Shown here: one piece after another, positions 11,146 to 44,983 of the stretch | Layout: every line of letters starts with the position of its first letter | Position numbering within the stretch: the stretch's first letter is position 1 | Assembly (NCBI GenBank): GCA_965228735.1 | Contig: OZ245838.1 | Coordinates: 6,496,001 to 6,560,000 of the forward strand | DNA length: 64,000 nt | Source: Planctomycetota bacterium | GTDB taxonomy: Bacteria; Planctomycetota; UBA1135; UBA2386 | Direction of reading: 5' to 3' | Notes under the pieces: model-generated | Database searches by the model: none | What the model saw: the letters and a program-made list of their open reading frames with translations, nothing else | What the model was told of the DNA's origin: nothing | Translations under genes and position numbers: made by a program

Positions 11146-11158
11146 TAAGACTGGCTGG

Positions 11159-15737: not shown

Positions 15738-15988
15738 AGTGGTTCCTCGCGGGTCTGATGTTCGCCGCGTTCGTCGCGATCGCGCTGTTCACCGCGACGG
15801 TGCGCGCCAACAACGCGCTGCGCCGTCACGAACTCGAACTCGAGTACCGGAGCGTGCGCGATCGCGAGATCGAGCTCGAGCGGCTCGAGGCCCAGCTGCT
15901 CGATAGCGCGACGGCCGAACGGCTCGCGCGCGCCCACGAACACTGGCTAATGGCCGAGTACGAACGCCGCCAGCGCGGCTGGCAGTAG
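15734..15988 (+). CDS. FtsL-like small TM/coiled-coil protein
   Basis: TM followed by heptad region; position between rsmH and PBP; GTGA overlap. Confidence 0.6.
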   Translation: MKWFLAGLMFAAFVAIALFTATVRANNALRRHELELEYRSVRDREIELERLEAQLLDSATAERLARAHEHWLMAEYERRQRGWQ

Positions 15989-15995
15989 GAGCGCC

Positions 15996-18008: not shown

Positions 18009-18075
18009 TTCGTAGGCTCCTGAGCGGTCAGGCTGAGGCAGCAGTCTCAGAGACGATACTTCGGTAGGGCGGTTG

Positions 18076-19592
<1,517 letters not shown>

Positions 19593-19608
<16 letters not shown>

Positions 19609-21113: not shown

Positions 21114-21149
21114 CCCGTGATCACCACCATCCGCCGAACGACCTGACCC

Positions 21150-23422: not shown

Positions 23423-23479
23423 CGGTCAGGTCGACCAAGCAATGGCGTTCTACAACGCGACAATCCTGGGAGGGATGTG

Positions 23480-24328
23480 ATGGGCCAGCTCGAGAAGTAC
23501 GGGCTCTACGTTTTGTGTCTGCTGATCTTCCTGATCCTCGGCGTCACCCTGATGGGGTCGGGGACGGTGGAGGCCAGCCCGGACGGGCAGCGCGAGCGCC
23601 AGTCGGTGCAGGATCTGAACGCGAGCCGTGAGGGTGGCGGGGCGCTGCCGGTGAACGATCGCGACACCACGCGGTCGAGTGGATCCCCGGCCAATGGATC
23701 CCCGGCCAATGGACCGACGGCGAACGGATCGCCGGCCAACGGCGGCGCGCGCGCCCCGAACTTCCGGGAACTGCTCACGCCGTCGGCGCGCCCCTCGAAC
23801 GGTGGCGCCAGCAGCAGCGTCGCGACGCCGAACCCGCGGCCGAACACGACCCCGTCGAACGGCGGGAACAGCCCACCGTCGAACGGCCGGGCAGCGTCGA
23901 ACGGCCGCACCGCGACGCCCGACCCGGCGCCGGTCCACACGCCGGCGCCAGCCGACCGCCCGACCTACACGATCCGGCGCGGCGACAACTACGAGTCCAT
24001 TGCCCGCGAATTGTTCGGCACGCGCGCGCTCGTCGGTGAGATCGCGCGGCTCAACCCGCGCATCGATCCGCTCAAGCTGCAGCCCAACAAGACGATCCTC
24101 GTGCCGACGAAGGCCGAGGCCGAGGCGTTCATCGCGCAGCGCGCGGCGAAGCGCACGGGCGTGCAGCTCGGCGGCACCTACAAGATCAAGAAGGGCGACA
24201 CGCTGATCGACATCGCCAAGCAGCAGCTCGGTTCGGAGGGTCGGCTCGCCGATCTGCAGGCCCTCAACCCGGGCCTCAATCCGACCAACCTGCGCATCGG
24301 CCAGAAGATCCGCTTGCCGCGCAAGTAG
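23480..24328 (+). CDS. Membrane-anchored double LysM peptidoglycan-binding protein
   Basis: N-terminal TM, P/S/N-rich linker, two LysM domains (YTIRRGDN..IA, YKIKKGDTL..IA..LN). Confidence 0.9.
   Translation: MGQLEKYGLYVLCLLIFLILGVTLMGSGTVEASPDGQRERQSVQDLNASREGGGALPVNDRDTTRSSGSPANGSPANGPTANGSPANGGARAPNFRELLTPSARPSNGGASSSVATPNPRPNTTPSNGGNSPPSNGRAASNGRTATPDPAPVHTPAPADRPTYTIRRGDNYESIARELFGTRALVGEIARLNPRIDPLKLQPNKTILVPTKAEAEAFIAQRAAKRTGVQLGGTYKIKKGDTLIDIAKQQLGSEGRLADLQALNPGLNPTNLRIGQKIRLPRK
23681..23740 (+). repeat. 4 x 15-nt coding tandem repeat (GSPAN/GPTAN)
   Basis: ggatccccggccaat x2 plus two degenerate copies. Confidence 0.85.
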
Positions 24329-24425
24329 CGCTGCGTTCGGGCCGGCGCGCTCACGCCGGCGCGGCGGCGTGTCGACGCCGCCCGAGGTCTCCTGACGTCA
24401 CTCTGCTTCTCCGATTCTGCACCGA

Positions 24426-25577
24426 ATGGTCCGACGTGTTTGTCTCGTGAGTGGGGGCACGGGCGGTCACCTGATGCCCGCACTCGTTCTGGCTCGCGGA
24501 CTGCGGGAACGCGGTCACGAGCCGGTCCTCCTGACCGAGGGCCGCGACGTCGAACGCGCGATGGTCGAGCGCGAGCTGCCCGACTTGCCGGCGCTGCGAC
24601 TGCCGGGCACGGGTGACGTCGCACGGCCGTCGCGCCTGCAGCTGCCGCTGTGGCTCCTGCGCACGACGCTCGCGATGCGCAAGACGCTGCGCGACGAACG
24701 CATCGACTGCGTGGTGAGCACGGGCGGGCGGCCGTCCGTGCCCGCGGGGCTCGCGGCGCGCAGTCTCGGCGTGCCACTCTTCCTGCTGGAGCAGAACGCC
24801 GTGACGGGCCGCGCCAACCGCCTGCTCGGGCCGTTCGCGAAGCGCATCTACCGCGGGCTGCCCGATCGCGGCCATCATGATCCCGGCTTCGTGACCGGCA
24901 CGCCGCTGCGGCCCGGCGTCGGGTCGGTCGATCGGCGGGTGGCGCGGCGGGCGCTCGAGTTGCCCGAGACGGCCCGCGTCGTCCTCGTGACTGGCGGCAG
25001 CCAGGGGGCGCAGGCGCTCAACGAGACCGTGCCCGCGGCGTTGCAGCGTCTCGCGGACGGCGTGACGAGCTACGTGCTGCACCTCGCGGGCGCCGGCAAC
25101 GCGGAGGACGTGGCGGCGCGCTACGGCATCGGCACCCACGACCTCGAGGCCGGCAGGGCCGTCGGGTCGGCCACGGTCGAGTCTGTCACGGTCGTGGCGA
25201 AGGTCTGGCCGACCACGACGCGGATGGCCGAGTGCTATGCCGCCGCGGACCTCGTGATCTGCCGCGGCGGCGGCACGACGGTCGCCGAACTGATCGCGGC
25301 GGGCCGGCCGGCCGTGATCGTGCCCTACCCGCATCATCGCGATCGCCAGCAGGTGCGGAACGCCGAGGTGCTCGTCGATGCCGGCGCTGCCGAGCTCGTC
25401 GAACAGCACGAGCTGACGGTCCAGGGCCTCGCCGACCGTCTCGCCCGGCTGCTCGGCGACCCCGCGAAGCTCGCGGCGATGGCGACCGCGGCCGGGCAGG
25501 TCACGACGGGCTCGGCGACGACGGCGATCCTCGACGACGTCGAGCGCGCGAGCGGCTGGACGGAGGTGGCCGAATGA
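24426..25577 (+). CDS. murG: Lipid II GlcNAc transferase
   Basis: GGTGGHL, EQNAVTG.AN, GGSQGA, Q..NA. Confidence 0.95.
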   Translation: MVRRVCLVSGGTGGHLMPALVLARGLRERGHEPVLLTEGRDVERAMVERELPDLPALRLPGTGDVARPSRLQLPLWLLRTTLAMRKTLRDERIDCVVSTGGRPSVPAGLAARSLGVPLFLLEQNAVTGRANRLLGPFAKRIYRGLPDRGHHDPGFVTGTPLRPGVGSVDRRVARRALELPETARVVLVTGGSQGAQALNETVPAALQRLADGVTSYVLHLAGAGNAEDVAARYGIGTHDLEAGRAVGSATVESVTVVAKVWPTTTRMAECYAAADLVICRGGGTTVAELIAAGRPAVIVPYPHHRDRQQVRNAEVLVDAGAAELVEQHELTVQGLADRLARLLGDPAKLAAMATAAGQVTTGSATTAILDDVERASGWTEVAE

Positions 25578-27037
25578 CGGCGCCCGCCGACGTGCCGCAG
25601 GAAGGCGTGCAACTCGCCGAGGCGACGGCCGGCGCGCCGCCCGTTCCCGGCTTCGCGAGCCGGCGCTTCCACTTCGTCGGGGTCGCGGGGGCTGGCATGA
25701 GCGGCCTCGCGCGACTGCTGCGCGGCATGGCGTGCGAGATCAGCGGCAGTGACTCGACCGACGGTCCGCAGCTGCAGCAGCTCGTCACCGAGGGGTGCGA
25801 TGTCTGGGCCACGGGGCGGCCCGAGCGCATCGCCGGCAGCGACGGCTACGTGATTCGGAGCGCCGCGGTGCCGAGCAGCGACCCGGAGGTGCAGGAGTGC
25901 GTGCGGCGTGGCTTCACGTCGCTGCTCTACGCCGAAGCGGTGGGGCGGCTCAGCGAAGGGCGCCGCACGCTCGCGATCGGCGGCACGCACGGCAAGACGT
26001 CGACGACCGCGCTCACGGTCGCCGGGCTGCGCGCCGCGGGCCTCGACCCGTCGCATCTGATCGGCGGCGACGTGCCCGAGTTCGCGACGGCAGGTGGTGT
26101 GGGCGGCAACGGGCATGGCGGCAAGAGCTCCGAGTTCGTCGTCGAGGCCTGCGAGTTCAACCGCAGCTTCCATTCGTTGCGGCCGTTCGGCGCGGCGATC
26201 CTCAACCTCGATCACGACCACTTCGACTGCTACCCGTCGACCGAGGAACTCATCGACGCGTTCGCCGGCTACCTCGCGCGCGTGCGTCCCGGCGGGACGG
26301 CGCTCGTCGACGAGAGCGTGCCGCGCGGCGTGCTCTCGAGTCTGCGCAACGACGTGACGATCCTCACGGTCGGCGCCGGTCTGTGGGCCGACATCCGCGC
26401 GATCGAGGTGAGCGAGGATCTCGGCCGGTTCTCGTTCGTCCCCGTCGTCCACGGCGACCGATTGGAGCGGGTTCAGATGGCGATGTCGGGTCGCCACAAC
26501 ATGCAGAACGCGCTGTTCGCGCTCGGGCTCGCGCACGTCGTCGGGGCCGATCTGCAGCGCGCCGGTCGCGGCATCGGCGACTTCGGCGGCGTCAAGCGCC
26601 GTTTCGAGGTGAGCCGCGGCCCCCGCGGTGGCGTGCTCGTTAACGACTACGCGCACCACCCGGTCGAGATCGCGGCGACGCTGCAGGCAGCGCGGCGGCG
26701 CTTCCCCGGGCAGCGGATCGTCGTCGCGTTCCAGCCGCACCAGTTCCAGCGCACGCGCTACCTGTTGCCGCAGTTCGCCGAGGCGCTGAGCGCGGCGGAC
26801 CTGACGCTCGTCGTCGACATCTACGGCGCGCGCGAGAGCGCGGATGCGCAGGCCAGCGTGTCGGCGCTCGACCTCGTCGAGGCCGTGCGCGAGCGCGGTG
26901 GTCGCAGCGAACGGGGCGGGAGCATTCAGGAGTTGCCCGCTCGCGTCGCCGAGCACTGGCAGCCCGACGATGTCGTGCTCGTGCTCGGTGCGGGGGACGT
27001 CGACCAGGCCGTGGAGGCGATCGTTGCCGGAATCTGA
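25574..27037 (+). CDS. murC: UDP-MurNAc:L-Ala ligase
   Basis: HFVGVAGAGMSGLA, GTHGKTST, EACE, GVKRRF, DYAHHP. Confidence 0.95.
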   Translation: MTAPADVPQEGVQLAEATAGAPPVPGFASRRFHFVGVAGAGMSGLARLLRGMACEISGSDSTDGPQLQQLVTEGCDVWATGRPERIAGSDGYVIRSAAVPSSDPEVQECVRRGFTSLLYAEAVGRLSEGRRTLAIGGTHGKTSTTALTVAGLRAAGLDPSHLIGGDVPEFATAGGVGGNGHGGKSSEFVVEACEFNRSFHSLRPFGAAILNLDHDHFDCYPSTEELIDAFAGYLARVRPGGTALVDESVPRGVLSSLRNDVTILTVGAGLWADIRAIEVSEDLGRFSFVPVVHGDRLERVQMAMSGRHNMQNALFALGLAHVVGADLQRAGRGIGDFGGVKRRFEVSRGPRGGVLVNDYAHHPVEIAATLQAARRRFPGQRIVVAFQPHQFQRTRYLLPQFAEALSAADLTLVVDIYGARESADAQASVSALDLVEAVRERGGRSERGGSIQELPARVAEHWQPDDVVLVLGAGDVDQAVEAIVAGI

Positions 27038-27956
27038 CCGCGAGCCGCAGTCCCGATCCGAACGGTCGGCCGAGCTGTCGACCGCGCTGCAGTCGATCCG
27101 CGGCGCCGTGCGGCAGAACGTGCAGCTTGCGCCGTTCATGCACCTGCGGATCGGTGGTCCCGCGGAGTGGTTCGTCGAGCCCTACGCCGAGGAGGATGCG
27201 GCCCGGGTCGTCGCGATCTGTCACGAGCTCGGCGTGCCGATGCGCGTGCTCGGCGGCGGCAGCAACGTCGTGATCGCGGACCGTGGCCTGCCCGGCGTCG
27301 TGCTCTACCTCGGCAACCTCAACCGCATCGTGCGCGACGGCGAACGCGTAACGGCCGGCGCCGGGTGCACGTTGCCGAGCCTCGTGCGCGCGACCAAGGA
27401 GGCCGGGCTCGCCGGACTCGAACGCCTCACGGGCGTGCCGGCCCAGGTCGGCGGAGCAGTCGCGATGAACGCCGGCACGCGTGACGGCGAGACCTTCGAT
27501 CTGCTCGTCTCGCTGACCGTCGTCGAGCCGGACGGCACGATCGTGGTGCGCGGGCCCGATGCGTTCTCACCGCGGTACCGCAACGGCGGTCTCGGGGACG
27601 CGATCGTGCTGCAGGCGGCGTTCGAACTCACGCCGGACTCACCCGACGCGATCTTCGAGCGCTTCTCCGCGAGCCTGCAGAAGCGCAACGCGTCGCAGCC
27701 CGTGTCGCAACGCAGCGTCGGTTGCGTGTTCCAGAACCCGGAGAACGACGCGGCGGGGCGGCTCATCGAGGCGGCCGGCTGCAAGGGTATCAGTGAGGGC
27801 GGCGTCGAGGTGAGTCCAGTGCATGCGAATTACTTCGTAAACTCGGGCGACGCGAGCGCCGCGGAGTTCCTCGCGCTCATGCGGCAGGTGCAGGCCCGCG
27901 TGCGCGACCAGTTCGGCGTCGAACTTCGCCCCGAGGTCAAGCTCTGGGGCTTTTAG
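27024..27956 (+). CDS. murB: UDP-N-acetylenolpyruvoylglucosamine reductase
   Basis: RIGGPA, GGGSN, GGAVAMNAG, GCVFQNP, HANYFVN; TTG start after GGAGG. Confidence 0.93.
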   Translation: MPESDREPQSRSERSAELSTALQSIRGAVRQNVQLAPFMHLRIGGPAEWFVEPYAEEDAARVVAICHELGVPMRVLGGGSNVVIADRGLPGVVLYLGNLNRIVRDGERVTAGAGCTLPSLVRATKEAGLAGLERLTGVPAQVGGAVAMNAGTRDGETFDLLVSLTVVEPDGTIVVRGPDAFSPRYRNGGLGDAIVLQAAFELTPDSPDAIFERFSASLQKRNASQPVSQRSVGCVFQNPENDAAGRLIEAAGCKGISEGGVEVSPVHANYFVNSGDASAAEFLALMRQVQARVRDQFGVELRPEVKLWGF

Positions 27957-28796: not shown

Positions 28797-29267
28797 ATGA
28801 TCGGACAGGTGGTCCAAGACGCCCGGCTCGTGCCGGAACTGCAGGCTCAGAACAAGGAAGGCGCGCTCAAGGAGCTCATCGGCCACGCCCAGGAGGCGGG
28901 CGCGTTCCCGAGCAAGTCGCTGAAGGCGATCTCCAAGCTGCTGCACGACCGCGAGGCGATCGGCAGCACCGGCCTCGGCAACGGGGTGGCCGTGCCGCAC
29001 GTGAAGTCGGACGCGGTCAAGGAGCCGACGCTGGTCCTCGCCCGCAGTCACGCCGGGCTCGAGTGGCAGGCGATCGACGGCCGCGCGGTCCACATCATGT
29101 TCATGCTGGTCTCGCCGGCGGACGAGCCCGAACGCCACCTCGGCTACCTGCGCTGGATCTCGAGTCTGGCGCGGAACTCGGACTTCCGGCGCTTCCTGCT
29201 CGATGCCGACGACGAAGCCGGCATGCGCGACCTGCTCGTCGAGATGACGCCCAAGGACGCCTCGTGA
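28797..29267 (+). CDS. ptsN: PTS IIA (nitrogen/fructose type)
   Basis: REAIGSTGLGNGVAVPH, AIDG. Confidence 0.85.
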   Translation: MIGQVVQDARLVPELQAQNKEGALKELIGHAQEAGAFPSKSLKAISKLLHDREAIGSTGLGNGVAVPHVKSDAVKEPTLVLARSHAGLEWQAIDGRAVHIMFMLVSPADEPERHLGYLRWISSLARNSDFRRFLLDADDEAGMRDLLVEMTPKDAS

Positions 29268-29551
29268 GCGAATCGGAAGCGCAGACGCTGCGCGTGACGC
29301 TGACCAACAAGCACGGGCTGCACGCGCGGCCGGCCCACCTGTTCGTGCAGACCGCCAACGCCTACGCGAGCAGCCTCGAGGTCGGCCGGGCCGACAGCGA
29401 GGACCGCGTCGACGGCAAGTCGATCATGGGGATGATGATGCTCGCGGCCGAGTGCGGGGTCGAGCTCGAACTCAAGGCCACCGGTCCGGACGCCGACGCG
29501 CTGCTGCGCGCGCTCGAAGAACTCGTCCAGGCCGACTTCGGCGAGGACTGA
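29264..29551 (+). CDS. ptsH: HPr/NPr phosphocarrier
   Basis: NKHGLHARPA (His15), DGKSIMG (Ser46); GTGA overlap. Confidence 0.9.
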   Translation: MSESEAQTLRVTLTNKHGLHARPAHLFVQTANAYASSLEVGRADSEDRVDGKSIMGMMMLAAECGVELELKATGPDADALLRALEELVQADFGED

Positions 29552-29666
29552 GCGCGGCGGCGCTCTGGACGTCCGGTCCTTCCGGTTCGTGGCGCCCCGA
29601 CCGGGGAACCTCGCAGATCCTTCGGATCTCTTGCTCGCGTCGACCGTTGGCATGAGAGTGGAGGTG

Positions 29667-32600
29667 ATGTCCATCCGCGTTGCCCTGCACCACCGAACGA
29701 GCTACTCGTACGACCGCCTCGTCGAGCTCGGCCCGCAGGTCGTCCGACTGCGCCCGGCGCCGCACTGCCGAACGCCGATCTCGGCGTACTCCCTGCGGGT
29801 GCGGCCGAAGAAGCACTTCCTCAACTGGCAGCAGGATCCCCTCGGCAATCACGTCGCGCGCTTCGTGTTCTCCGAGCCGACGCGCTCGCTCGAACTGGAG
29901 GTCGACCTCGTTGCCGACCTGCAGGTGATCAACCCGTTCGACTTCTTCCTCGAGCCGTTCGCGGAGGAGTTTCCGTTCACGTATCCCGCCCAACTCGCGC
30001 AGCAGCTCGCGCCGTTCCTGCGGCGGGACGAGGCCGGGCCGTTGTTCGCCGCGTTCCGTGGCGAGGTGGATCGGACGGCGCGGCCGACGACCGACTTCCT
30101 CGTGCTGATGAACCAGCACGTCAACCAGCGGCTGGAGTACGTCCTGCGGCACGACCCCGGTGTGCAGTCACCGGAGGAGACGTTGACGCTGGGCCGCGGC
30201 TCGTGTCGCGACTTCGCGCTGCTCCTGCTGCAGTTGCTGCGGCATCACGGGGTCGCGGCGCGCTTCGTTTCCGGCTACTCGATCCAACTCGTGGCCGACC
30301 AGAAGCCGCTCGAAGGTCCGGTGGGCGTCGCCGTCGATACCGTGGACCTGCACGCGTGGGTCGAAGCGTACTTGCCCGGGGCTGGCTGGGTCGGACTCGA
30401 CGCCACGAGCGGCCTGTTCGCTGGGGAAGGTCACATCCCACTCGCGTGCAGCGCCGAGCCGCACGATGCGTCGCCGATCGCCGGCAGCCTCGACGACTGC
30501 GAGACCGAGCTCGACATCACGATGACCGTGGAGCGTCTGCGGGACGTGCCACGCACGACCAAACCGTTCTCCGACGAGCTGTGGGATCGCCTGCTCCGCG
30601 TGGGCGACGCGGTCGACGAGCGTCTCGCTGCGGGCGACGTCAGGTTGACGATGGGGGGCGAACCGACGTTCGTGTCGATCGACGACTATGTCGGAGCCGA
30701 GTGGAACACGGCTGCCGTCGGCGGGGCCAAACTGGAGCTCGCGCACCGACTGATGGGACGCCTTCGCGACCGGTTCGCCGCCGGTGGCTTCGTGCAGTTC
30801 GGTCAGGGCAAGTGGTACCCGGGCGAGTCGTTGCCGCGCTGGGCGATGACGTGCTACTGGCGGCCGGACGGCGAACCGATCTGGCAGGACCCGCGGTGGA
30901 GTCACGATCCGTCGGCCACCGGTTCGCAGACGGTCGCGCAGGCGCGGCAGTTCGCGGAGACGTTGGCGAAGAACCTCGCGACCGATGCGTCGCACGTGCT
31001 CGCTGCGTTCGAAGATGTGGGCTACTATCTGTGGCGTGAGGGACGGTTGCCGGCCGACGTCGATCCGACGAACCCGGAACTCGAGGACGCCGAGGAGCGG
31101 GCGCGGATCGCACGGGTGTTCTCGCGCGGGCTCACGACTCCCGTGGGGTACGTGCTGCCGCTGCAGCGCGTCGCGGCCGGGAGTCGTCGAATCTGGCAGA
31201 GCGGCCTGTGGATGCTGCGCAGTAAACACGTGTTGCTCGCGCCGGGTGACTCGCCGGTCGGGCTGCGACTGCCGATGGCCTCGTTGCCGGCGAGATCGAC
31301 CGCGGCGTGGTCACCGGAGCAGCCGCGCGACCCGATGGAGCCGCGCGGTCCGCTGCCGCCCGCGGGCCGGGTGCAGCCGCAACGGGACACGACATCGGTC
31401 GACGGGCCGGACGGCGGGGCGCGCAGCGAGCAGGTGCCGCCGAGCGCGACCGCGGCGGCGGGTGACGCGGTTCGGACGGCATTGGTGGTCGAACTGCGCG
31501 ACGGCCGGGTGCACGTGTTCCTGCCGCCCGTCGCGTTGGCCGAGGATTTCCTCGATCTCGTGGCCACGGTGGAGCGGACCGCGGCGGAGGTCGGATTCGC
31601 GGTCGTCGTCGAGGGCTACCCGGCACCGCAGGATGACCGGCTCGCGCTGCTGCGGATCACGCCCGACCCCGGCGTGATCGAGGTCAACGTTCAGCCGGCT
31701 GCGTCGTGGCGCGAGCTGGTCGAACTGACGACCGGCCTGTACGAGGACGCCCGGCAGAGCCGACTCGGAACCGAGAAGTTCCTCGTGGACGGCCGGCCGA
31801 TGGGCACCGGCGGCGGCAATCATGTCGTCGTCGGGGCGGCTCGGCCGCAGGACAGTCCGTTCCTCCGGCGGCCCGATCTGCTGCGGAGTCTGCTCGGCTA
31901 CTGGCACAACCACCCGTCGCTCAGCTACCTGTTCTCGAGTCTGTTCATCGGCCCGACGAGCCAGTCGCCGCGGATCGACGAAGCCCGGCACGACTCCCTG
32001 CGCGAGCTGGAGATCGCGTTCGCGCAGATTCCCGACGGCGGCGGTGACGGATCGCGGCACTGTCCGCCGTGGCTCGTCGATCGCCTGTTCCGTCATCTGT
32101 TGGCCGACGCGTCGGGGAACACGCATCGGACCGAGTTCTGCATCGACAAGCTGTACTCGCCCGATTCGGCGAGCGGGCGACTCGGACTGCTCGAGCTGCG
32201 CGGTTTCGAGATGCCACCTCACCCGCGCATGAGCCTCGCCCAGCAGCTGCTCGTGCGGGCGGCCGTGGCGCGGTTCTGGGATGCGCCGTACCGCGCGCGT
32301 CTGACCCGCTGGGGTACGACGCTGCACGATCGGTTCCTGCTCCCGTACTTCGTGCGGCGGGACTTCGAGGCAGTGCTGCGCGAGTTCTCGGACCACGGAC
32401 TGCCGCTCGAGTGGGCGTGGTACGCGCCGCAGTTCGAGTTCCGGTTTCCGCGCGCCGGCGAGGTCACGGTCGACGACGTGCAGCTCGAGGTGCGGCATGC
32501 GCTCGAGCCTTGGCACGTGCTCGGTGAAGAGCCGGGTGGCGGCGGCACGACCCGGTTCGTCGATTCGTCGCTCGAGCGCGTGCAGGTCATGCTGACGGGG

Positions 32601-33002
32601 CTGTCCGACGTCGATCGGCACGCGCTGGTGTGCAACGGGGTCCGGGTGCCGCTCACGGCGACGCACGTACGCGGACAGGCCGTGGCCGGAATCCGATTCC
32701 GGGCGTGGCAGCCGCCGAACTGCCTGCACCCGACGATCGGCGTCAACGACCCGCTCGAGTTCGAGCTGTTCGACGAGGTGGAACAGCGCGCGCTGGGCGG
32801 TTGCGCCTACCACGTCGCCCATCCCGGCGGCCGCAGCCATGAGGCGCCGCCGACCACGGCCTACGAAGCCGAGGGGCGTCGGCTCGCGCGGTTCGTGCCG
32901 TTCGGCCATACGCCGGGTCGGGCGGCGCCGCGCGCGGTGGACCGTGACCCAGAGGGCCCGATCACTCTGGATCTGCGACAGGCGGCGCGAGCAGCACGCT
33001 GA
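29667..33002 (+). CDS. Transglutaminase-like + DUF2126 (putative amidoligase) protein
   Basis: GSCRDF/LHAWVE/LDAT triad; LTMGGEPTF, TPDPGVIEVN, GTGGGNH, ELRGFEMPP; GGAGGT RBS. Confidence 0.92.
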   Translation: MSIRVALHHRTSYSYDRLVELGPQVVRLRPAPHCRTPISAYSLRVRPKKHFLNWQQDPLGNHVARFVFSEPTRSLELEVDLVADLQVINPFDFFLEPFAEEFPFTYPAQLAQQLAPFLRRDEAGPLFAAFRGEVDRTARPTTDFLVLMNQHVNQRLEYVLRHDPGVQSPEETLTLGRGSCRDFALLLLQLLRHHGVAARFVSGYSIQLVADQKPLEGPVGVAVDTVDLHAWVEAYLPGAGWVGLDATSGLFAGEGHIPLACSAEPHDASPIAGSLDDCETELDITMTVERLRDVPRTTKPFSDELWDRLLRVGDAVDERLAAGDVRLTMGGEPTFVSIDDYVGAEWNTAAVGGAKLELAHRLMGRLRDRFAAGGFVQFGQGKWYPGESLPRWAMTCYWRPDGEPIWQDPRWSHDPSATGSQTVAQARQFAETLAKNLATDASHVLAAFEDVGYYLWREGRLPADVDPTNPELEDAEERARIARVFSRGLTTPVGYVLPLQRVAAGSRRIWQSGLWMLRSKHVLLAPGDSPVGLRLPMASLPARSTAAWSPEQPRDPMEPRGPLPPAGRVQPQRDTTSVDGPDGGARSEQVPPSATAAAGDAVRTALVVELRDGRVHVFLPPVALAEDFLDLVATVERTAAEVGFAVVVEGYPAPQDDRLALLRITPDPGVIEVNVQPAASWRELVELTTGLYEDARQSRLGTEKFLVDGRPMGTGGGNHVVVGAARPQDSPFLRRPDLLRSLLGYWHNHPSLSYLFSSLFIGPTSQSPRIDEARHDSLRELEIAFAQIPDGGGDGSRHCPPWLVDRLFRHLLADASGNTHRTEFCIDKLYSPDSASGRLGLLELRGFEMPPHPRMSLAQQLLVRAAVARFWDAPYRARLTRWGTTLHDRFLLPYFVRRDFEAVLREFSDHGLPLEWAWYAPQFEFRFPRAGEVTVDDVQLEVRHALEPWHVLGEEPGGGGTTRFVDSSLERVQVMLTGLSDVDRHALVCNGVRVPLTATHVRGQAVAGIRFRAWQPPNCLHPTIGVNDPLEFELFDEVEQRALGGCAYHVAHPGGRSHEAPPTTAYEAEGRRLARFVPFGHTPGRAAPRAVDRDPEGPITLDLRQAARAAR

Positions 33003-34809
33003 GTCGCAGGGCGCGCGCGAGCGTGACCAGAGCGCGACGTCCCGCCTCGCTCGTGCCGTGCTCGTTCACGCCCGGCGCGAATACCGTGATCCCGGCGCAG
33101 CCCGGCGACACCGCGACGATGGCGCCGGAGATGCCGCTCTTGGCCGGCAGACCGACATCGAAGGCGAATCGCCCCGACTCGTCGTGCAGGCCGCATGTGT
33201 ACATCACGCTGAGCGTCTGGCGAACGACGGCCTGGTCCAGTAGGCGGTCGCCCGTGGCCGGATCCAACCCGCCGCTGGCCAGAACGGCCGCCATGCGCGC
33301 GAGCTCGGTCGTGCCCGACCGGATCGCGCACTGGTGGAAGTAGAGCTCGAGCGCATGCTCGACCTCGGCGACGACGCCGTGGGCGCGCAGCAGGCTCGCG
33401 ATCGCCCGGTTGCGGTCGCCGCCGACCCGCTCCGCGGCCAACACCACGGCATCGACCTCGAGTCGGTCCACGCCGGCGAGCCTGGCGAAGTCGCGGAGCT
33501 GTGTCGCGACGCGGTCCGCCAACGCCGCGCCGGGGACGGTGCTCGCCACGGCGATGGCGCCCGCGTTGCCGAGCGGGTTGTGTGGCCGGTGCAGGACGGG
33601 GTCGAGGAAGATCTCGTGGAACGGGTTCCCGCTGGCCTCGACGCCTGCGAGTTCGCGGATCCGGTCGCCGCCATGCCGTTCGAGCGCCAACGCGTGGCCG
33701 AACACGTTCGCGGCCGCCTGCATCGCAAAGCGGGTCGCGATCCCGGCCTGGACCACGACGCCGGCGGTCGTGACGAGGCTGATGTCGACCTCTTCGTCCC
33801 GGGCGACGGTCTCGACGAGGGCTTGCAATGCCGGCCCATCCGGCAGGGTCGGCTCCGCGCGCGGTGCCGGCGGCACGTTGCGCGGCGAGAAGATGTGCAA
33901 CCCCATCGACGTCGACAGCTCACGGAGTGCGGCGACGCCACGGACCGGGTTGCCGCGGGCGTCGAGCCGCGGCGACCAGGCCGCGAGCCCCATTCGGCCG
34001 GGAACGACCGCGAAGATCGCGCCGGAGACGCCGCTCTTCGCCGGCAGGCCCACGTCGTGCAGGAACGCCCCCGCGCCATCGTACAGGCCGCAGGTCGACA
34101 TCACCGCCACCACGTCGCGCGCGACCTCCGGCGTGACGACCTGTTCGCCGCTCACCGGGTTGTGGCCGCCGTCCGCCAGCGTCGCCGCCATGACCGCGAG
34201 CTCGCGGCAGGTCACGAGGATCGCGCACTGCTGGAAGTAGAGGTCGAGTGCGGCGGCGACATCGACGTCGATGACGCCGTGATAGCGCAACAGGTAGGCG
34301 ATCGCGCGGTTCTGATCGCCCGTGTCCCGCTCCGACAGGTACGTCGCCGAGTCGACGTGCAGCTCGGCAGCCGCGAACTGCCCGAACGATCGCAGCATCG
34401 TCGCGATCGGCGCGTCGTCCGTTGCGGCGGCCAGGAGGCCCGATACCGCGATCGCGCCGGCGTTGATCATCGGGTTGTGCGGTCGGTGCGTACCGGTCTC
34501 GAGCCGCACGATGGAATCGAACGAGCGGCCCGTGGGCTCGACGCCGATCTTGTCGCATACCGCGTCGCGGCCGAGTCGCTGCAGGGCGCCGGCGTACGCG
34601 AACGGTTTGGACGTCGACTGCAGCGAGAACCGCGCGGCGCTGTCGCCGACCTCGGCGATCTCGCCACCAACGGTGCACGCGGCGATCCCGTACTGCTCCG
34701 GGTCGGCCTCGGCGAGCCGCGGAATGTAGTCGGCGACCGCGCCGTCCCGCAGCTCGGCGGTCCGAGCGAGCGCGTCCCGCAGCGCTTGTTGGAGGTCAGA
34801 CGTGGCCAT
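32962..34809 (-). CDS. glsA: Glutaminase A family, tandem two-domain
   Basis: ADYIP.L, QSTSKPF, HNPMINAGAI, PAKSGVSG; second copy HNPLGNAGAI, PAKSGISG. Confidence 0.88.
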   Translation of the reverse strand: MATSDLQQALRDALARTAELRDGAVADYIPRLAEADPEQYGIAACTVGGEIAEVGDSAARFSLQSTSKPFAYAGALQRLGRDAVCDKIGVEPTGRSFDSIVRLETGTHRPHNPMINAGAIAVSGLLAAATDDAPIATMLRSFGQFAAAELHVDSATYLSERDTGDQNRAIAYLLRYHGVIDVDVAAALDLYFQQCAILVTCRELAVMAATLADGGHNPVSGEQVVTPEVARDVVAVMSTCGLYDGAGAFLHDVGLPAKSGVSGAIFAVVPGRMGLAAWSPRLDARGNPVRGVAALRELSTSMGLHIFSPRNVPPAPRAEPTLPDGPALQALVETVARDEEVDISLVTTAGVVVQAGIATRFAMQAAANVFGHALALERHGGDRIRELAGVEASGNPFHEIFLDPVLHRPHNPLGNAGAIAVASTVPGAALADRVATQLRDFARLAGVDRLEVDAVVLAAERVGGDRNRAIASLLRAHGVVAEVEHALELYFHQCAIRSGTTELARMAAVLASGGLDPATGDRLLDQAVVRQTLSVMYTCGLHDESGRFAFDVGLPAKSGISGAIVAVSPGCAGITVFAPGVNEHGTSEAGRRALVTLARALRLSVLLAPPVADPE

Positions 34810-36826
34810 CAATAACGGGTGTCACCCGCACCTCGATCTCCAGCTTCTCGCCGCCGCCACCGCGGTAGATCGTGCCGGAGGTCGGCGTGGCATCGCGGAA
34901 GTGCCGGCCGGATGCTACGCGGATGTGGTCGTGGTCGACGATGCACCCGTTGGTCGGGTCGAGGCCCTTCCAGCCGAGCCAGGGGAGGAACACCTCGACC
35001 CACGCGTGCGACGCGTCGGACTGCAGCTTGTTCTCGTAGTTGCCGCCCGTGTAGATGTAGCCGACGCGATAGCGGGCCGGGACGTTGAGCAGTCGCGCGA
35101 GACAGATCAGCAGGTTCGCGAAGTCCTGACAGACCCCGCGGCGGGTGGTGTAAACCTCGAACGGCGTCGTCTCGACGGACGTGATGCCCTGCACGTAGGC
35201 GTAGTCGCGGTAGATCGAGGTGTTGATGTCGAGCAGCGTCTCGACGATGTCGTAGTCCTGGCGCTCGACGAAGCTCATGGCGTAGTCGAACAGCTCCTGC
35301 AGTTGGGATTCGGGCAGCTCCATCGGCAGCAGGTACGGCAGCATCATCTGCCGCTGCCAGGGCATCCAGGACAGCGGCACGCTCGTGCGCCGGTGCGGGG
35401 AACGCAGCTCGCCGACGGGCATCGCGTGGACCCGGACGCGCGAACGCGCGACGAACGCCATCTTCGGCGCCGACCCCTCGATCTCGATACGGGTCGCGAA
35501 GTTGCCGAACACGTCCTCGTGCTCGAACTGCGCGGTGAGCGGTTCGATGTCGAGATCGTACGACAGCACCTCCTGGAACCGGTCGTGAACGGGCCGCACC
35601 CGCAGGACGTGCCGGCTGAACTCGACGGGCGTCTCGTACTCGTAGCGCGTCGCGTGCAGCACGTCGTACACGCGCACCGAGTCGGTCGGGGACGGCGCGG
35701 CATCGGGAGACGGCGCCGAGGGCGCGCCGGGCGCGGTGGGCGAGTCGGCCGAGGTCAGGGTCGGGTCGGGCCCGTTCGCGGCTGCTTCGCCCTCGGGCGC
35801 CGCTCCGGGACCGGTGGGCGGCGGGTCGTTGACGGCGGCCGGCGCCGCCGTCTGCTGCTGCAGTGTCGGTGCCAGCCCGGCCTCGGCCGGCAGGTCGAGG
35901 GGCCCGACGGGACCCGCCGCCGGCGCGGCTGCGGCCTCGCCCAAGATCGAGGAGGGCGGGACCGAGGAGGGCGGGACCGCGGAGGGTAGGGCCACGTCGG
36001 CTGTCGCCGGGGCGGTCGCGCTGTCCCAGAGGACGGCGCCGCGGCAGATGGCGAGCATCTGGCCGGGCGTCATCCGCTGCCAGTTCCCCGGCTCGTCGCC
36101 GGCGTCCGCGAGTTGATCGGTCGAGACCAGCACGGCCGTGCGGCTCCGGTCCCGAACGCCACCGAGGTCGAGTTCGACGTCGTCGCCCGTCAGGAGCGTG
36201 GCGGCGTGTGGCGGGCAGCGCCGCGTCCAGTGCATCGGTGCGTGGCCGCCCTGGTCCTGATACGCGACGAGATGGGAGCCGTCCGAGATCAGCATGTTGA
36301 ACGTGCCGACCTGGTTGGCCTCGCCGAGCCACGCATGCAGGCGCTCCCATCCGATCTCGGCCAGCCGGTCGATGTCGTGTTCGCGGCACCGCTGCAGCAA
36401 CCAGCACAGGACGTGTTCGGTGTCGGTCCGGCCAACGGGTTCGAAGGCCGGTCGGTCGCCGAGCGGCAAGGCTGCCGCGAAGCCCGCGTCGAGCTGGCCG
36501 TGGTGCGTCATCACCCAGTCGCGGCCCGCATGACTGCGCGCGAACGGGTGCGTGTTCTCCTGCGAGATCCGGGCCGCGGCGCCGCGCAGGTGACCGACGA
36601 ACACAGTCGAGCGGAACCGGGTCCAGTCGCGCAGCAGCTGCGTCGACGCGCCGTCGGAGGACGCGGCCGGGTCCTTGACGACGGTCGCGGCGCGGTCGCT
36701 CGCGGCGTACCAGGCCATGCCCCAGCCGTAGGGTCGCTGGCGATCGGCGCGATCGGCCCGCGTGTAGAGCAGCGTCATGAGCGGCGATGCCGCGGCGTCG
36801 AACGACATGCCGAGGAGTTTGCTCAC
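34796..36826 (-). CDS. Class II glutamine amidotransferase (Ntn, YafJ/EgtC-like) fused to transglutaminase
   Basis: GTG start MSKLLGMSFD; GWG, HLR, ENTHPF, G.TDTE; C-terminal GVCQDF/SHAWVE/LDPTN. Confidence 0.88.
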   Translation of the reverse strand: MSKLLGMSFDAAASPLMTLLYTRADRADRQRPYGWGMAWYAASDRAATVVKDPAASSDGASTQLLRDWTRFRSTVFVGHLRGAAARISQENTHPFARSHAGRDWVMTHHGQLDAGFAAALPLGDRPAFEPVGRTDTEHVLCWLLQRCREHDIDRLAEIGWERLHAWLGEANQVGTFNMLISDGSHLVAYQDQGGHAPMHWTRRCPPHAATLLTGDDVELDLGGVRDRSRTAVLVSTDQLADAGDEPGNWQRMTPGQMLAICRGAVLWDSATAPATADVALPSAVPPSSVPPSSILGEAAAAPAAGPVGPLDLPAEAGLAPTLQQQTAAPAAVNDPPPTGPGAAPEGEAAANGPDPTLTSADSPTAPGAPSAPSPDAAPSPTDSVRVYDVLHATRYEYETPVEFSRHVLRVRPVHDRFQEVLSYDLDIEPLTAQFEHEDVFGNFATRIEIEGSAPKMAFVARSRVRVHAMPVGELRSPHRRTSVPLSWMPWQRQMMLPYLLPMELPESQLQELFDYAMSFVERQDYDIVETLLDINTSIYRDYAYVQGITSVETTPFEVYTTRRGVCQDFANLLICLARLLNVPARYRVGYIYTGGNYENKLQSDASHAWVEVFLPWLGWKGLDPTNGCIVDHDHIRVASGRHFRDATPTSGTIYRGGGGEKLEIEVRVTPVIDGHV

Positions 36827-37821
36827 TGACCGACTCCGCCGGCCCGATCGGCCTCCTGCTCGGCGAGAGTGGGGTCGAAGAAGTCCGCGCGGACCTGCAG
36901 ACACAGGTTGGCGATGCCGTCGATCATGTAGGTGAGTTCGTCGTGGAGCGCGAAGCCGAAGAGCTGCGTGCCCGACTCGTGCCGCAGCCGGGTCCGCAGG
37001 GCGTCCAGCATTGTAGCCGACTCCTCGCCGCGCTTGCCGTCGCTCAGCTCGCGCACGTAGGCGATGGAATCGGCGGCGCGGACCAGGCAGTGGCGGACGG
37101 AGCGCGGCAGGTCGCGTTCGAGCAGCAGGAACTGAGCGACCGCTGCGCCGGAGAGCGTGAGCCCGCGCTTGAAGAACGACTCGGTCGCCGTCAGCGTCCG
37201 CAGCAGCGCGAGCCAGTGCGCGGCCTCGGCCGGCGACTCGCCCTGACTCGGGTCGGTCGGCCCGAGATGGTGGTGCTTGACGTCGAGCAGGCGAGCCGTC
37301 TGGCTGGCGCGTTCGAGCAGCATCCCGAGCCGCATGAAGTGGAAGGCCTCGTCGTGTAGGATCGTGCCGTGCGTCAGTGCACGCAGGAGCTCGACCTCCC
37401 GTCGGACCCGGGAGTAGAACTCGAGGGCGTCCTTCTCGAACAGCCGCCGCCCCTTGCCGTCCGTCAGCCACAGCCAGAGGCCGTTGATGGCGAGCCACAT
37501 CTCGAGGCTGATGGTCTCTCGGACCGTGCGGGCGTTCTCCCGGGCCAACGTCACCATCTGGACGACCGAGGCGAAGTTGTCCGGGTCCCAGACGAGGTAG
37601 TCCTGGACGATCTGGCCGTCGGTCGCGGCTGCGGCATCGTGGCGTTCGAGAAAGCCCGGCTCTTCGCCGGCAGCGATGAGCAGCGCGCGCCAGCTGTCCT
37701 TGGCCGAGACCTGCAGATCGAGCACGCTCGACAGGTTGACCTCGATCATGCCGGCCGTGCTGCCGGCACGTTCGAGATAGCGGTGCAGCCAGAAACAGTT
37801 CTCCGCGACGCGCGAGATCAT
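36823..37821 (-). CDS. Alpha-E domain protein
   Basis: MISRVAENCFWL.RYLERA, ARENARTVRE.IS.E.W, LERA..TAR.LDVK, PRSV. Confidence 0.92.
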   Translation of the reverse strand: MISRVAENCFWLHRYLERAGSTAGMIEVNLSSVLDLQVSAKDSWRALLIAAGEEPGFLERHDAAAATDGQIVQDYLVWDPDNFASVVQMVTLARENARTVRETISLEMWLAINGLWLWLTDGKGRRLFEKDALEFYSRVRREVELLRALTHGTILHDEAFHFMRLGMLLERASQTARLLDVKHHHLGPTDPSQGESPAEAAHWLALLRTLTATESFFKRGLTLSGAAVAQFLLLERDLPRSVRHCLVRAADSIAYVRELSDGKRGEESATMLDALRTRLRHESGTQLFGFALHDELTYMIDGIANLCLQVRADFFDPTLAEQEADRAGGVGQ

Positions 37822-39293
37822 GACTGCTCCTTCAGGACCCAGGTGTCCTTGGACCCGCCGCCCTGGCTGGAGTTGACCACGTACGAGCCCTCCTTGAGGG
37901 CCACCCTGGTGAGGCCGCCGGGCAGGACCCAACTCGACTTGCCCGTCACGATGTAGGGGCGAAGGTCGACCCGGCGGGGCGCGACCCCGCGCGAGGACCA
38001 CGTCGGGCAGGTGCTGAACTCGACCAGCGGCTGCGCGATGTAGTTGTGTGGTCTTGCCGCGACCTGGCGCGCCATGGCCTTGATCTCGGCCTTGGTCGCC
38101 GTCGGGCCGACGCACATGCCGTAGCCGCCGGCGCCCGCGACCTCCTTGACCACGAGATCGGCGATATTGTCGAGCACGTAGCGGCGATCGTCCGGTTCGG
38201 AGCAGCGGTAGGTCGCGACCTGCGGCAGCAGCGGTTCCTCACCGAGGTAGAACCGGATCATCTCGGGCACGAACGGATACATCGCCTTGTCGTCGGCGAT
38301 GCCGTTGCCGACGGCGTTGGCGATCGTGACGTTGCCCGCGGCGTACGCACGCATCAGACCGCAGACTCCGAGCGCGCTGTCCTCGCGGAACATCTCGGGA
38401 TCGAGGAACAGGTCGTCGACCCGGCGATAGACCACGTGCACGCGGCGGGGGCCCTGCGTCGTCTTGACCCACAGGCAGTCGTCGTGCACGAACAGGTCGC
38501 GACCCTCGACGAGCAGGCAGCCCATGAGCCGCGCGAGGAAGCTGTGCTCGAAATACGCCGAGTTGAAGATGCCGGGGGTCAGGACCGCGATGTTGGTGTC
38601 CGCCGGGTCGATCGGTGAGACCGAGAGCAGCGCCTCACGCAACCGCATCGCGTAGTCGTCGACCGTTTCGACCTGGGCAAGCTGGAAGATCAGCGGGAAC
38701 AGCCGCTTCATCACCGAGCGGTTCTCGAGCACGTAGGACACCCCGGACGGGACACGCAGATTGTCCTCGAGCACGACGAACTCGCCGTCCTGCCGCCGCA
38801 GCAGGTCGACGCCGGCGATGTGGACCGAGACGCCGTGCGGCTTCGTCAGTCCGCGCACCTCCGGCACGAAGCCGCTGCACTGCTCCACGAGCTCGCGCGG
38901 GATCCGTTCCGCCTGCAGGATCTCCTGATCGCCGTAGATGTCCTCGAGGAAGCGGTTGAGCGCGGTCACGCGCTGGATCAGCCCGCGCTCCAGGGGCGCC
39001 CAGTCGGCCGCCGAGATGACCCTCGGGATCAGGTCGAACGGGAAGGTCTTCTCCGTGCCCCGACGGTCGGAGTAGACCGAGAAGGTCACCCCGCCGCGGC
39101 GGAACGCCGAATCCGCGAGGCGCTGGCGCTGCCGGAAGTCACCGCGATCGATCTGGAGCAACAGGCGCGCGACGTGAGCCGCATCCGAGTGCGGCGATCC
39201 GTTCTCGTCGAACAGTTCGTCGAACGCGTCCGCGGGTTCGTATCCGTCGAGTAGCCCTGCCGCCGGCTCACCCCTGCGTGATCTGCCTGCCAT
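37818..39293 (-). CDS. Circularly permuted type 2 ATP-grasp protein
   Basis: PFDLIPR, VLEDNLRVPSGVSY, NSAYFEH, DLRPY, PGGLTRVAL, VNSSQGGGSKDTWV. Confidence 0.94.
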   Translation of the reverse strand: MAGRSRRGEPAAGLLDGYEPADAFDELFDENGSPHSDAAHVARLLLQIDRGDFRQRQRLADSAFRRGGVTFSVYSDRRGTEKTFPFDLIPRVISAADWAPLERGLIQRVTALNRFLEDIYGDQEILQAERIPRELVEQCSGFVPEVRGLTKPHGVSVHIAGVDLLRRQDGEFVVLEDNLRVPSGVSYVLENRSVMKRLFPLIFQLAQVETVDDYAMRLREALLSVSPIDPADTNIAVLTPGIFNSAYFEHSFLARLMGCLLVEGRDLFVHDDCLWVKTTQGPRRVHVVYRRVDDLFLDPEMFREDSALGVCGLMRAYAAGNVTIANAVGNGIADDKAMYPFVPEMIRFYLGEEPLLPQVATYRCSEPDDRRYVLDNIADLVVKEVAGAGGYGMCVGPTATKAEIKAMARQVAARPHNYIAQPLVEFSTCPTWSSRGVAPRRVDLRPYIVTGKSSWVLPGGLTRVALKEGSYVVNSSQGGGSKDTWVLKEQS

Positions 39294-39506
39294 TGGGCCG
39301 ACTAGACGGCTTCGGCGCCGTGAGTCACGCACGAACGCGGATTGCCGCCGCCCCCGCGGAGTGCGGTTCGGTGGCTACGGGATTCCCTCGATCCGCCCGT
39401 GGCACCGACCGGACTGCGTCGGGATGGACAACTGCCTCAATTCGAGAGCGGGTGCGGACCGATAGATCGCCGGGAACGCTCGCTCGGCGAGCAGGAGTCA
39501 AGCGCC

Positions 39507-40529
39507 ATGCTGAAGCAGCGGAAGAGCATCGTCGGTCTGGATATCGGCAGTCATTGCATCAAGGCCATCGAGCTTGCTCGCGACAAATACGACTACGTGA
39601 TCACGGGCTACGCCCAGATCGAGGTCAGCGACGAAGCGGGGCGGTCCGACGCCATCGCGGAGCTCATGCGGGCGGCGAAGTTCCGCAGCAAGCGCGTCGC
39701 GACGTCGGTGAGCGGCAAGAACGTGATCTTTCGCTACGTGCCGCTCGCCGACATGTCGCAGGACAAGTTGGTGCAGGCCGTGCGGGTCGACGCCGACAAG
39801 TACATCCCGTTCGACGTCGAGGACGTCGAGCTCGACGTGCAGAAGCTCGCGAAGGTCGAGGAGGACAACCCCGAGTCCGACGTGAAGTGCCTGCTGATCG
39901 CCGCGAAGAAGACGGTCGTCGCGGACCAGGCGCAGCTGCTCATGGAACTCGGGCTGCAGCCGGTCTCGATCGGCGTCGACGGCTTCGCCCTCGGCAACGC
40001 CTGGGAGCTCGGCGACGTCGTGAACCCCGGCATCCAGGAACCGGGTCGCACGGTCGCGCTCGTCGACATCGGCGCGACCAAGACGAGCATCAACATCATG
40101 AGCGACAACGTCTCGTGCTTCGCGCGCGAGGTGCCCATGGGCGGCCAGGACTTCACCAACGCGATCGTCCGCCGTCTCGGCATCGAGAGCCCGCAGGCCG
40201 AGCAGATGAAGCGCGATGCCGGTGACCAGGTCGACGTCGTCCAGGAGGCGATGACGCAGGCCATCGAGGACCTCGGCAACGAGATCAACCTGTCATTCGA
40301 CTTCTTCGAGAACCAGTTCGACGGCGAGGTCCAGGAGGTCTGGCTCACCGGCGGCTCGGCGCTGCTGCCGTTCCTCGAGGAGAGCTTCGAGAAGATCTTC
40401 GAGAAGCGGACCAAGACCTGGAACCCGATCGAGGGCCTGAAGGTGCGCGCCGACAACGTCGACGTCGAAGCGCTGAACCAGTTCGCCCCCCAACTCGCCG
40501 TGGCCGTCGGCCTGGCGGCGACGTCGTAG
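39507..40529 (+). CDS. pilM: Type IV pilus assembly protein PilM
   Basis: VGLDIGS..IK, YIPF, VDIGA..T, LTGGS, AVAVGLA. Confidence 0.92.
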   Translation: MLKQRKSIVGLDIGSHCIKAIELARDKYDYVITGYAQIEVSDEAGRSDAIAELMRAAKFRSKRVATSVSGKNVIFRYVPLADMSQDKLVQAVRVDADKYIPFDVEDVELDVQKLAKVEEDNPESDVKCLLIAAKKTVVADQAQLLMELGLQPVSIGVDGFALGNAWELGDVVNPGIQEPGRTVALVDIGATKTSINIMSDNVSCFAREVPMGGQDFTNAIVRRLGIESPQAEQMKRDAGDQVDVVQEAMTQAIEDLGNEINLSFDFFENQFDGEVQEVWLTGGSALLPFLEESFEKIFEKRTKTWNPIEGLKVRADNVDVEALNQFAPQLAVAVGLAATS

Positions 40530-44659: not shown

Positions 44660-44983
44660 TCGTATCATCCGGCCGCCTGCCCGGGCCGGGTGAACCGCCC
44701 GGCCGCGGTCGGGCGCGCTTCGACGCCGCCGCCCCCCGCGACGCGCGCGAGCGCTGCGTTGCATTTGCCATGGTTTCCGAGCGCCTCCGCCCCCGCACTG
44801 CCCTGGGTCCCGACTCGCACCTCCGGGTGCGCGCCGGCGGCCGGCGGTTCGGGCCAGAGAGCGCGCGCGGGCCTGGTTGTTTCGAGTTCTCCCTGGTCGA
44901 ACCGAAGTCTGCGGCTGCCACCGGCGCCGCCTGGTCCCAGGGGATCGCCCGTCCGGGCGATCGATACCCCGAGGAAGTTCCCC

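Follow-up and report, generated by a model that had tools for sequence, protein, structure and literature searches.

The closest described relative of the locus analyzed here is the Anbu operon, which comprises four genes, is of unconfirmed function and has an ATP-grasp protein that hydrolyzes ATP, according to the accessible parts of two reports (PMC6376114, PMC5666114). The locus itself is a cassette of five genes in a 64,000-nucleotide stretch from Planctomycetota bacterium (GenBank assembly GCA_965228735.1, contig OZ245838.1, positions 6,496,001 to 6,560,000), hereafter the window. It shares the order circularly permuted (CP) ATP-grasp, alpha-E, transglutaminase with the Anbu operons of Pseudomonas putida (PP_2688-2685) and Yersinia bercovieri, as far as the accessible text describes them (PMC6376114, PMC5666114, PMC3235984), and its ATP-grasp is ~50–58% identical to proteobacterial copies; the function is unsolved in both. 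In contrast to the Anbu operon, the cassette lacks Anbu and adds, within one block, a class II glutamine amidotransferase (GATase) fold domain of the GATase_4 family that has no catalytic Cys and is fused to the transglutaminase, a glutaminase, and a transglutaminase–DUF2126 gene. Neither is the cassette an Anbu operon nor is its GATase domain a canonical class II amidotransferase, but the cassette likely works in the manner of the Anbu operon.

To our knowledge, the ATP-grasp/alpha-E/transglutaminase system has had no known substrate since 2008–2009. Iyer et al. 2009 reportedly may already list GATase-II neighbors of CP-ATP-grasps, and the Pfam text of PF14403 presumably names a GAT-II-like amidohydrolase neighbor. 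A literature search, with most subscription papers outside its reach, returned no report of a Cys-less GATase–transglutaminase fusion, of a tandem glutaminase with a disarmed half, of glutaminase linkage to the system, or of a disarmed glutaminase or GATase domain acting as a glutamine sensor. The transglutaminase–DUF2126 gene shares its two-domain architecture and conserved columns with the Rv2566-type transglutaminase/carboxylate-amine ligases, for which the accessible text reports no activity, and differs from them in converging on the glutaminase end of an operon (PMC2588565). Rv2411c and Rv2567 do not make gamma-aminobutyric acid–trehalose, according to the accessible part of a preprint (bioRxiv 10.64898/2026.04.15.718621). 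The accessible text of PMC12798123 and PMC8665760 contains nothing that bears on the system.

In the cassette an intact gene set is combined with both intact and disarmed active sites, both disarmed domains are under purifying selection, and the glutaminase is linked to the system recurrently. We tentatively read it as a system of reversible glutamylation that the glutaminase would feed and that two pseudo-enzyme domains would tune by binding glutamine, a reading to which we give a little less than even confidence.

Results

Core Genes of the Cassette

All five open reading frames (ORFs) are present and intact, with coding-like G + C content at third codon positions (GC3, 0.87–0.91), and pass the Pfam cut-offs. 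The CP-ATP-grasp, alpha-E, GATase_4–transglutaminase and tandem glutaminase genes follow each other on the minus strand with overlaps of 4 nt (ATGA), 4 nt (GTGA) and 14 nt, and the transglutaminase–DUF2126 gene converges on them from the plus strand, overlapping the glutaminase gene tail-to-tail by 41 nt (Table 1). The gene set, order and overlaps given in a first-pass annotation, made from the sequence alone, were thus borne out by the ORF coordinates and Pfam matches. The ATP-grasp agrees with 139 of the 140 columns conserved at ≥95% in 50 homologues, and the DUF2126 protein with 262 of 265 conserved columns (47 homologues); in alpha-E, E17-R18 and E170-R171 are invariant across 53 aligned sequences, and the Cys-His-Asp triad is kept in both transglutaminase domains of the cassette. 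With the ATP-grasp beside alpha-E, intact triads and a transglutaminase–DUF2126 fusion, the cassette belongs to the CP-ATP-grasp/alpha-E/transglutaminase system, of which it had been annotated as a variant; Pfam matches and intact residues agree. The core genes are single-copy in the genome (tblastn), and contigs assembled from all four of four DNA runs, one of them possibly the source of the window, span the cassette and both junctions with no listed differences.

GATase-Fold Domain of the Fusion Protein

Foldseek matched the GATase domain to 1TE5 and EgtC. With YafJ/PA1307 (PDB 1TE5), EgtC (4ZFJ-L) and Dug3 it has the fold and the pocket Arg/Gly/Asp in common, and it differs from them by Ser/Thr in place of the N-terminal Cys, a relaxed oxyanion Asn and the fusion to a transglutaminase. 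In the window protein aligned to 1TE5, Ser2 occupies the catalytic Cys site and His109 replaces the oxyanion Asn, while Arg81, Gly110, Asp135 and Glu137 are kept. Of 52 fusion proteins, 50 cover the catalytic site, and these have Ser (39) or Thr (11) and in no case Cys; an overlapping set of 76 loci including the window gave 55 Ser, 16 Thr, 5 other residues and no Cys. In contrast, the stand-alone GATase_4 relatives have Cys in 38/38 covering the site and the HNG motif in 39/39. We take the pocket Arg/Gly/Asp to be the Gln-binding residues and the Asn to be the oxyanion residue. In the 52 fusion proteins, Gly110, Asp135 and Glu137 are found in all, Arg81 in 47 and the oxyanion Asn in 31. The domain therefore has the N-terminal-nucleophile (Ntn) fold and Arg/Gly/Asp of the class II GATase/GATase_4 family, and lacks the N-terminal Cys and oxyanion Asn.

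A role as a conventional Cys amidotransferase or ammonia donor was ruled out by these residues (Cys in 0/76 vs. 38/38), and, because the standard catalytic residues are missing, the domain is also unlikely from its sequence to be a conventional Cys eraser. The ratio of nonsynonymous to synonymous substitution rates (dN/dS) is 0.04–0.29 in 6 pairs, with dS made rough by the high GC3; by this codon comparison the domain is under purifying selection. The start codon stands directly before the nucleophile site in 38/76 loci, with Ser/Thr directly after the start in 37/76, and the other 38/76 loci carry upstream extensions of 1–32 codons with no fixed preceding residue. A stand-alone GATase_4 gene elsewhere in the genome (G000:C1:531795-532535) has a frame that begins with Val(start)-Cys, the conventional form.

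The transglutaminase triad is present in 52/52 aligned fusions, and the best structural match of this domain is 3ISR. The model of the fusion protein reached a predicted template modeling score (pTM) of 0.79 despite the ~110-residue disordered linker, which suggests that the GATase and transglutaminase domains pack together. The fusion tree was built from the loci other than four partial or broken ones and two without a GATase match.

Tandem Glutaminase

Compared with GlsA/YbaS (1U60), YbgJ (1MKI) and mammalian GLS, the cassette glutaminase has two domains per chain; in half 1 the ten active-site positions compared are all conserved, and half 2 lacks the Ser/Lys/Tyr. The motif QSTSK of half 1 reads QAAAN in half 2, which nevertheless keeps the pocket residues Gln364, Asn415, Glu460, Asn467 and Tyr490. 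Within PF04960, domain 1 thus has S-x-x-K, two Tyr and the pocket, and domain 2 has neither S-x-x-K nor the catalytic Tyr. The numbering and roles of the S-x-x-K, Tyr and pocket residues are presumed to follow GLS. The first-pass description of the locus as extended with glutamine-handling enzymes stands for glutaminase half 1, which looks standard, and is unsupported for the GATase domain and glutaminase half 2, which are without the standard catalytic residues.

In half 2 of 19 tandem loci, Ser is replaced by Ala in 19, Lys by Asn or His in 19 and the second Tyr by His in 17, with the five pocket residues kept in 19/19; Ser and Lys are kept in all 74 aligned single-domain glutaminases. Across 102 tandem proteins, counted after setting aside three shorter than 600 aa, the half-2 catalytic Lys is missing in 85 and the five pocket residues are kept in 101–102. 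The dN/dS of half 2 was 0.09–0.25 in 4/5 pairs, the fifth being saturated, and on these values half 2 is under purifying selection. The two-domain model reached a pTM of 0.94, and no solved tandem glutaminase structure was present among the structural matches listed.

In a second tandem subfamily (17/102; P0167, P0175, P0176, P0178, P0181-P0186, P0188-P0194), half 2 is intact, and in half 1 S-x-x-K is retained and Lys/Arg stands in place of the pocket Glu. It may represent a mirror-image design or a changed substrate.

Distribution of the System and Linkage of the Glutaminase

A search of GTDB genomes with the fusion protein gave 270 related stretches, the best 80 of which were kept as loci. 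These come from Planctomycetota, Myxococcota, Pseudomonadota, Nitrospirota, Spirochaetota, Melainabacteria and others, and within ≤8 kb carry ATP-grasp in 52, alpha-E in 51, DUF2126 in 58 and glutaminase in 13, many contigs being short. ORF clustering over the 80 loci, by cluster sizes and positions, showed no other family that is widely conserved in addition to the five. In 8/80 loci (L005, L009, L019, L027, L039, L058, L069, L070), the transglutaminase–DUF2126 gene has downstream of it another DUF2126-like gene, which is shorter (33–37% identity). The system is very common, with ATP-grasp matched in 148/301 sampled Pseudomonadota genomes. Cultured carriers include Engelhardtia mirabilis (L004) and Kiloniella laminariae (L024), and locus L004 coincides with a genome of the same order as the host.

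Linkage of the glutaminase was then compared among genomes. Half of the 24 glutaminase-bearing genomes among 50 fusion genomes have it within 8 kb of the cassette (one broken), and no further glutaminase locus turned up in 10 of these 12. In contrast, none of 24 glutaminase-bearing genomes among 74 controls, which were every second of 147 ATP-grasp-positive Pseudomonadota genomes, has it within 10 kb of a listed ATP-grasp, in a comparison where the controls are all Pseudomonadota, the distance is taken from the ATP-grasp gene and the controls were chosen irrespective of the fusion. Within Pseudomonadota alone, the linked glutaminase was found in 4/6 glutaminase-bearing fusion genomes vs. 0/24 controls. 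The naive Fisher p of 8e-5 overstates the linkage, since kin are not independent. Tandem glutaminases lie beside system genes in 8/11 metagenome loci vs. 0/69 for single-domain ones, and, in a 400-genome phylum sample, in 7/9 genomes vs. 0/16 singles fetched (of 23 single-domain genomes). The linkage is therefore not unique to this genome, so that the refuting condition set for the first-pass proposal, a unique linkage without co-transcription, fails on the side of linkage.

Linked single-domain glutaminases occupy four separate places on the fusion tree, and, in a set that covers four phyla, the glutaminase has at least five positions or orientations relative to the cassette. Repeated independent recruitment was considered and is not established: constraining the linked glutaminases to one clade gave an approximately unbiased test p (p-AU) of 0.36, on trees built without near-duplicates and unsampled singles.

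Three variant arrangements were seen. In L085:473-5677 the tandem glutaminase converges on an ATP-grasp/alpha-E/transglutaminase operon without a GATase-domain match, so glutaminase linkage does not need the fusion. At L214:7848-10813, alpha-E is directly followed by a tandem glutaminase; the 13.6 kb examined there, which ends at the contig end, contains neither an ATP-grasp nor a fusion gene. The non-cassette tandem glutaminases of two genomes (L215:6374-13404 and L216:6589-13096) are flanked by a divergent Ser/Thr protein kinase gene on one side and a HEAT-repeat gene on the other.

Anbu and Nitrogen Context

No Anbu or proteasome-family gene was found in the genome, which is 93.4% complete, by searches with PF00227 and with an Anbu protein whose identity had been confirmed on Anbu structures in the PDB, so that the first-pass remark that the locus has no Anbu-like gene extends genome-wide. 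Anbu is present in 6/50 fusion genomes vs. 44/74 ATP-grasp-bearing Pseudomonadota genomes, and in 4/18 fusion genomes within Pseudomonadota alone. It lies inside the fetched fusion locus in 2/80 loci, L053 and L059, both in a six-locus degenerate clade; three of the other four genomes of this clade, which are incomplete, gave no Anbu match. That Anbu and the fusion strictly exclude each other was rejected, as 6/50 fusion genomes have Anbu, at least two of them in a separate ATP-grasp/alpha-E operon.

The nitrogen tie suggested in the first-pass annotation fits, by analogy with the canonical operon, the accessible portions of several papers: induction of the canonical operon is reported when nitrogen is limiting (PMC7801951, PMC3235984), and in Burkholderia a cluster with a transglutaminase domain depends on NtrC (PMC5491218). 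A CP-ATP-grasp gene also stands in a table of predicted RpoN sites (PMC13207237, seen in part), and in marine metagenomes these domains are linked with urea-metabolism domains, according to the available text of PMC3597751. The genome has only one weak P-II-family match. A scan of the cassette showed no sigma-70-like site and no terminator at the gene ends; for a presumed sigma-54 consensus it gave 42 matches vs. 54 expected, none of them upstream of the operon.

Insertion Site and Neighboring Genes

DNA homology to the same-genus genome G001 ends at ~29563 and restarts at ~39430, two points that are ~145 bp apart in G001. HPr and pilM are spaced by 0.2–0.95 kb in 5/5 relatives, and the cassette is absent at the site in all five, one of which has it on another contig; the fusion gene was found in only 1/60 relatives. 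Judged from these alignments, the cassette is inserted as one block, and therefore its phosphotransferase system (PTS) neighborhood is incidental. No repeat of ≥14 nt was found within either cassette end region, and no excision joint among the joints listed for the DNA-run contigs.

A functional link to the PTS or nitrogen-PTS was rejected on the absence of the cassette at this site in the five relatives, on the 0/160 related loci (L001-L160) that contain EIIA, HPr or pilM, and on the sub-cut-off EIIA, which scored 64.8 bits vs. 138.7 for PtsN and 96.8 vs. 103.5 for FruA. The ptsN-HPr tie of the first-pass annotation is thus a coincidence of the insertion site, and its ptsN label is not established. 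HPr ends 115 bp before the DUF2126 gene; read-through from HPr into this gene is possible in this genome, in an arrangement that is not conserved.

TABLE 1. Features of the cassette and its flanks (window positions).
Feature	Position	Strand	Basis or remark
Whole cassette	29564..39429	.	~9.87 kb, between HPr and pilM
CP-ATP-grasp ligase, 491 aa, predicted writer	37818..39293	-	PF14403 E 6e-163, PF04174 E 5e-142 (CP_ATPgrasp_1/2)
Alpha-E protein, 332 aa, predicted acceptor or scaffold	36823..37821	-	PF04168 E 9e-76
GATase_4–Bact_transglu_N–Transglut_core fusion, 676 aa, GTG start	34796..36826	-	Pfam
Class II GATase (GATase_4) fold domain of fusion, residues 1-272	36011..36826	-	PF13230 E 2e-64
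Pro/Ala-rich linker of fusion, residues 273-381	35684..36010	-	predicted local distance difference test (pLDDT) <50
Transglutaminase-like domain of fusion, Cys566-His607-Asp623 intact	34796..35674	-	PF08379, PF01841
Tandem glutaminase, two Glutaminase domains, 615 aa	32962..34809	-	Pfam; whole protein above TIGR03814 cut-off
Glutaminase domain 1, intact (Ser65, Lys68, Tyr191, Tyr243)	33880..34809	-	aligned to human/mouse GLS, YbaS
Glutaminase domain 2, catalytically disarmed (Ala365, Asn368, His542)	32962..33843	-	residue comparison
Transglutaminase (Cys180-His229-Asp245) + DUF2126 carboxylate-amine ligase, 1111 aa, Rv2566-like	29667..33002	+	PF09899 1240 bits, PF08379, PF01841
PTS EIIA and HPr, host flank outside cassette	28797..29551	+	profile matches
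pilM, host flank outside cassette	39510..40529	+	TIGR01175 above cut-off

Elsewhere, the window holds a Bat-type operon (2-12130; MoxR AAA, DUF58, vWA, TPR and BatD), a dcw-type cell-wall cluster (14772-27956; mraW, a penicillin-binding protein, two Mur ligases, mraY, a LysM protein, murG and murB), and a gene for RNase E/G (44690-47521), whose N-terminal part is interrupted by ~300 residues of acidic low-complexity sequence.

Discussion

Since the two disarmed domains keep their pockets and a glutaminase is attached, it is likely that Glu is added and removed under control of the glutamine level. We infer the chemical steps and the acceptor as follows. Half 1 of the glutaminase would convert Gln to Glu and ammonia, the CP-ATP-grasp and DUF2126 ligases would attach this Glu by amide bonds, the acceptor most likely being alpha-E or a partner presented by alpha-E, and the transglutaminase-like domains would remove or transfer the tag. 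The Cys-less GATase domain would bind Gln/Glu or the glutamyl tag and gate its fused transglutaminase, the disarmed glutaminase half 2 would bind Gln and gate its fused active half, and the system would track nitrogen status. That the system is complete for writing and erasing gamma-glutamyl or isopeptide bonds, as proposed in the first-pass annotation, is what we still infer rather than observe. Doubtful, in our view, is the stronger form, a self-contained mobile glutamine-sensing protein-glutamylation switch in which two hydrolase folds, the class II GATase and the serine-type glutaminase, have been turned into sensors, each fused to the enzyme it controls.

Several results weigh against glutamine-tuned glutamylation, in addition to the make-up of the control set described above. 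The glutaminase is accessory to the system, occurring in 13/80 loci and in 10/47 loci of at least 15 kb, and the closest sister cassette, L001, has no glutaminase; in the phylum sample, 2/9 tandem glutaminases are located apart from it; and the linked glutaminases may have a single origin (p-AU 0.36), so that their counts are not independent events. In the GATase domain, the pocket Arg81 is kept in only 53/72 of the main group, Ser/Thr at the nucleophile site in 70/71 covering loci outside the degenerate clade fits catalysis no less than binding, and in that clade (L053, L059, L041, L049, L061, L072) Asp135 is gone and Ser/Thr mostly gone. Further, for the family defined by the transglutaminase–DUF2126 fusion, synthesis of small glutathione-like peptides and not protein conjugation has been predicted, as the accessible text has it (PMC2588565).

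This last prediction favors an explanation in which the compound that the cassette forms and degrades is a small gamma-glutamyl peptide or a nitrogen-storage metabolite, with alpha-E as adaptor and the glutaminase supplying Glu or ammonia. The ATP-grasp is similar to glutathione synthetase and liberates phosphate from ATP (PMC6376114, accessible part), and small gamma-glutamyl compounds are the substrates of the GATase_4 family. However, the ORF clusters of the 80 loci contain no recurring transporter or tailoring gene, and the part of PMC3495828 available predicts that tags added by ATP-grasps are taken off again by transglutaminase domains, which also fits reversible glutamylation; we regard a small product as unlikely. 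We consider similarly unlikely that the GATase-fold domain is a live Ser/Thr N-terminal-nucleophile amidohydrolase that replaces Anbu as the gamma-glutamyl/isopeptide eraser. It would account for Ser/Thr in 71/76 loci, including 34/38 where the residue does not directly follow the start codon, and for the scarcity of Anbu in fusion genomes (6/50 vs. 44/74), with in-locus Anbu in 2/80 loci and only in the pocket-decayed clade; its relatives EgtC and Dug3 are gamma-glutamyl hydrolases by their PDB titles and the accessible text of PMC12653102. On the other hand, the oxyanion Asn is kept in 39/39 stand-alone relatives but in 50/72 fusions and is His in the window protein, a free nucleophile would need self-cleavage in the 38/76 loci with 1–32-codon extensions, three of the four remaining degenerate-clade genomes (incomplete) have no Anbu match, and Anbu and the fusion co-occur in 6/50 genomes. 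Cys-to-Ser mutants of class II enzymes reportedly lose glutaminase activity. The Ser codons, 55 in number, are without exception AGY and so differ from Cys by a single base, which again speaks for a live Ser nucleophile.

Least probable of these explanations, and in our estimate improbable, is that the glutaminase is a co-travelling nitrogen-scavenging passenger and that the disarmed domains are structural, as a fused pseudo-dimer partner or a stabilizing domain, and sense nothing. Its absence from 67/80 loci and from the nearest sister, the single origin that was not rejected, the tandem glutaminases away from the system (L215, L216) and the second subfamily (17/102), in which the other half is altered, are all compatible with a passenger. 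The substrate-pocket residues of half 2, not merely its fold residues, are however near-invariant, the glutaminase takes at least five positions or orientations around the cassette in four phyla, and it is the sole glutaminase locus found in 10/12 linked genomes, all of which argue against a passenger.

The three added domains are Gln/Glu-binding folds, pointing to glutamate as the ligated unit and to glutamine as input or signal. As the cassette is compact and single-copy, reconstitution from five proteins is feasible. If the switch is real, it would show that the long-unsolved Anbu-type operons use Glu for the tag and Gln for the signal.

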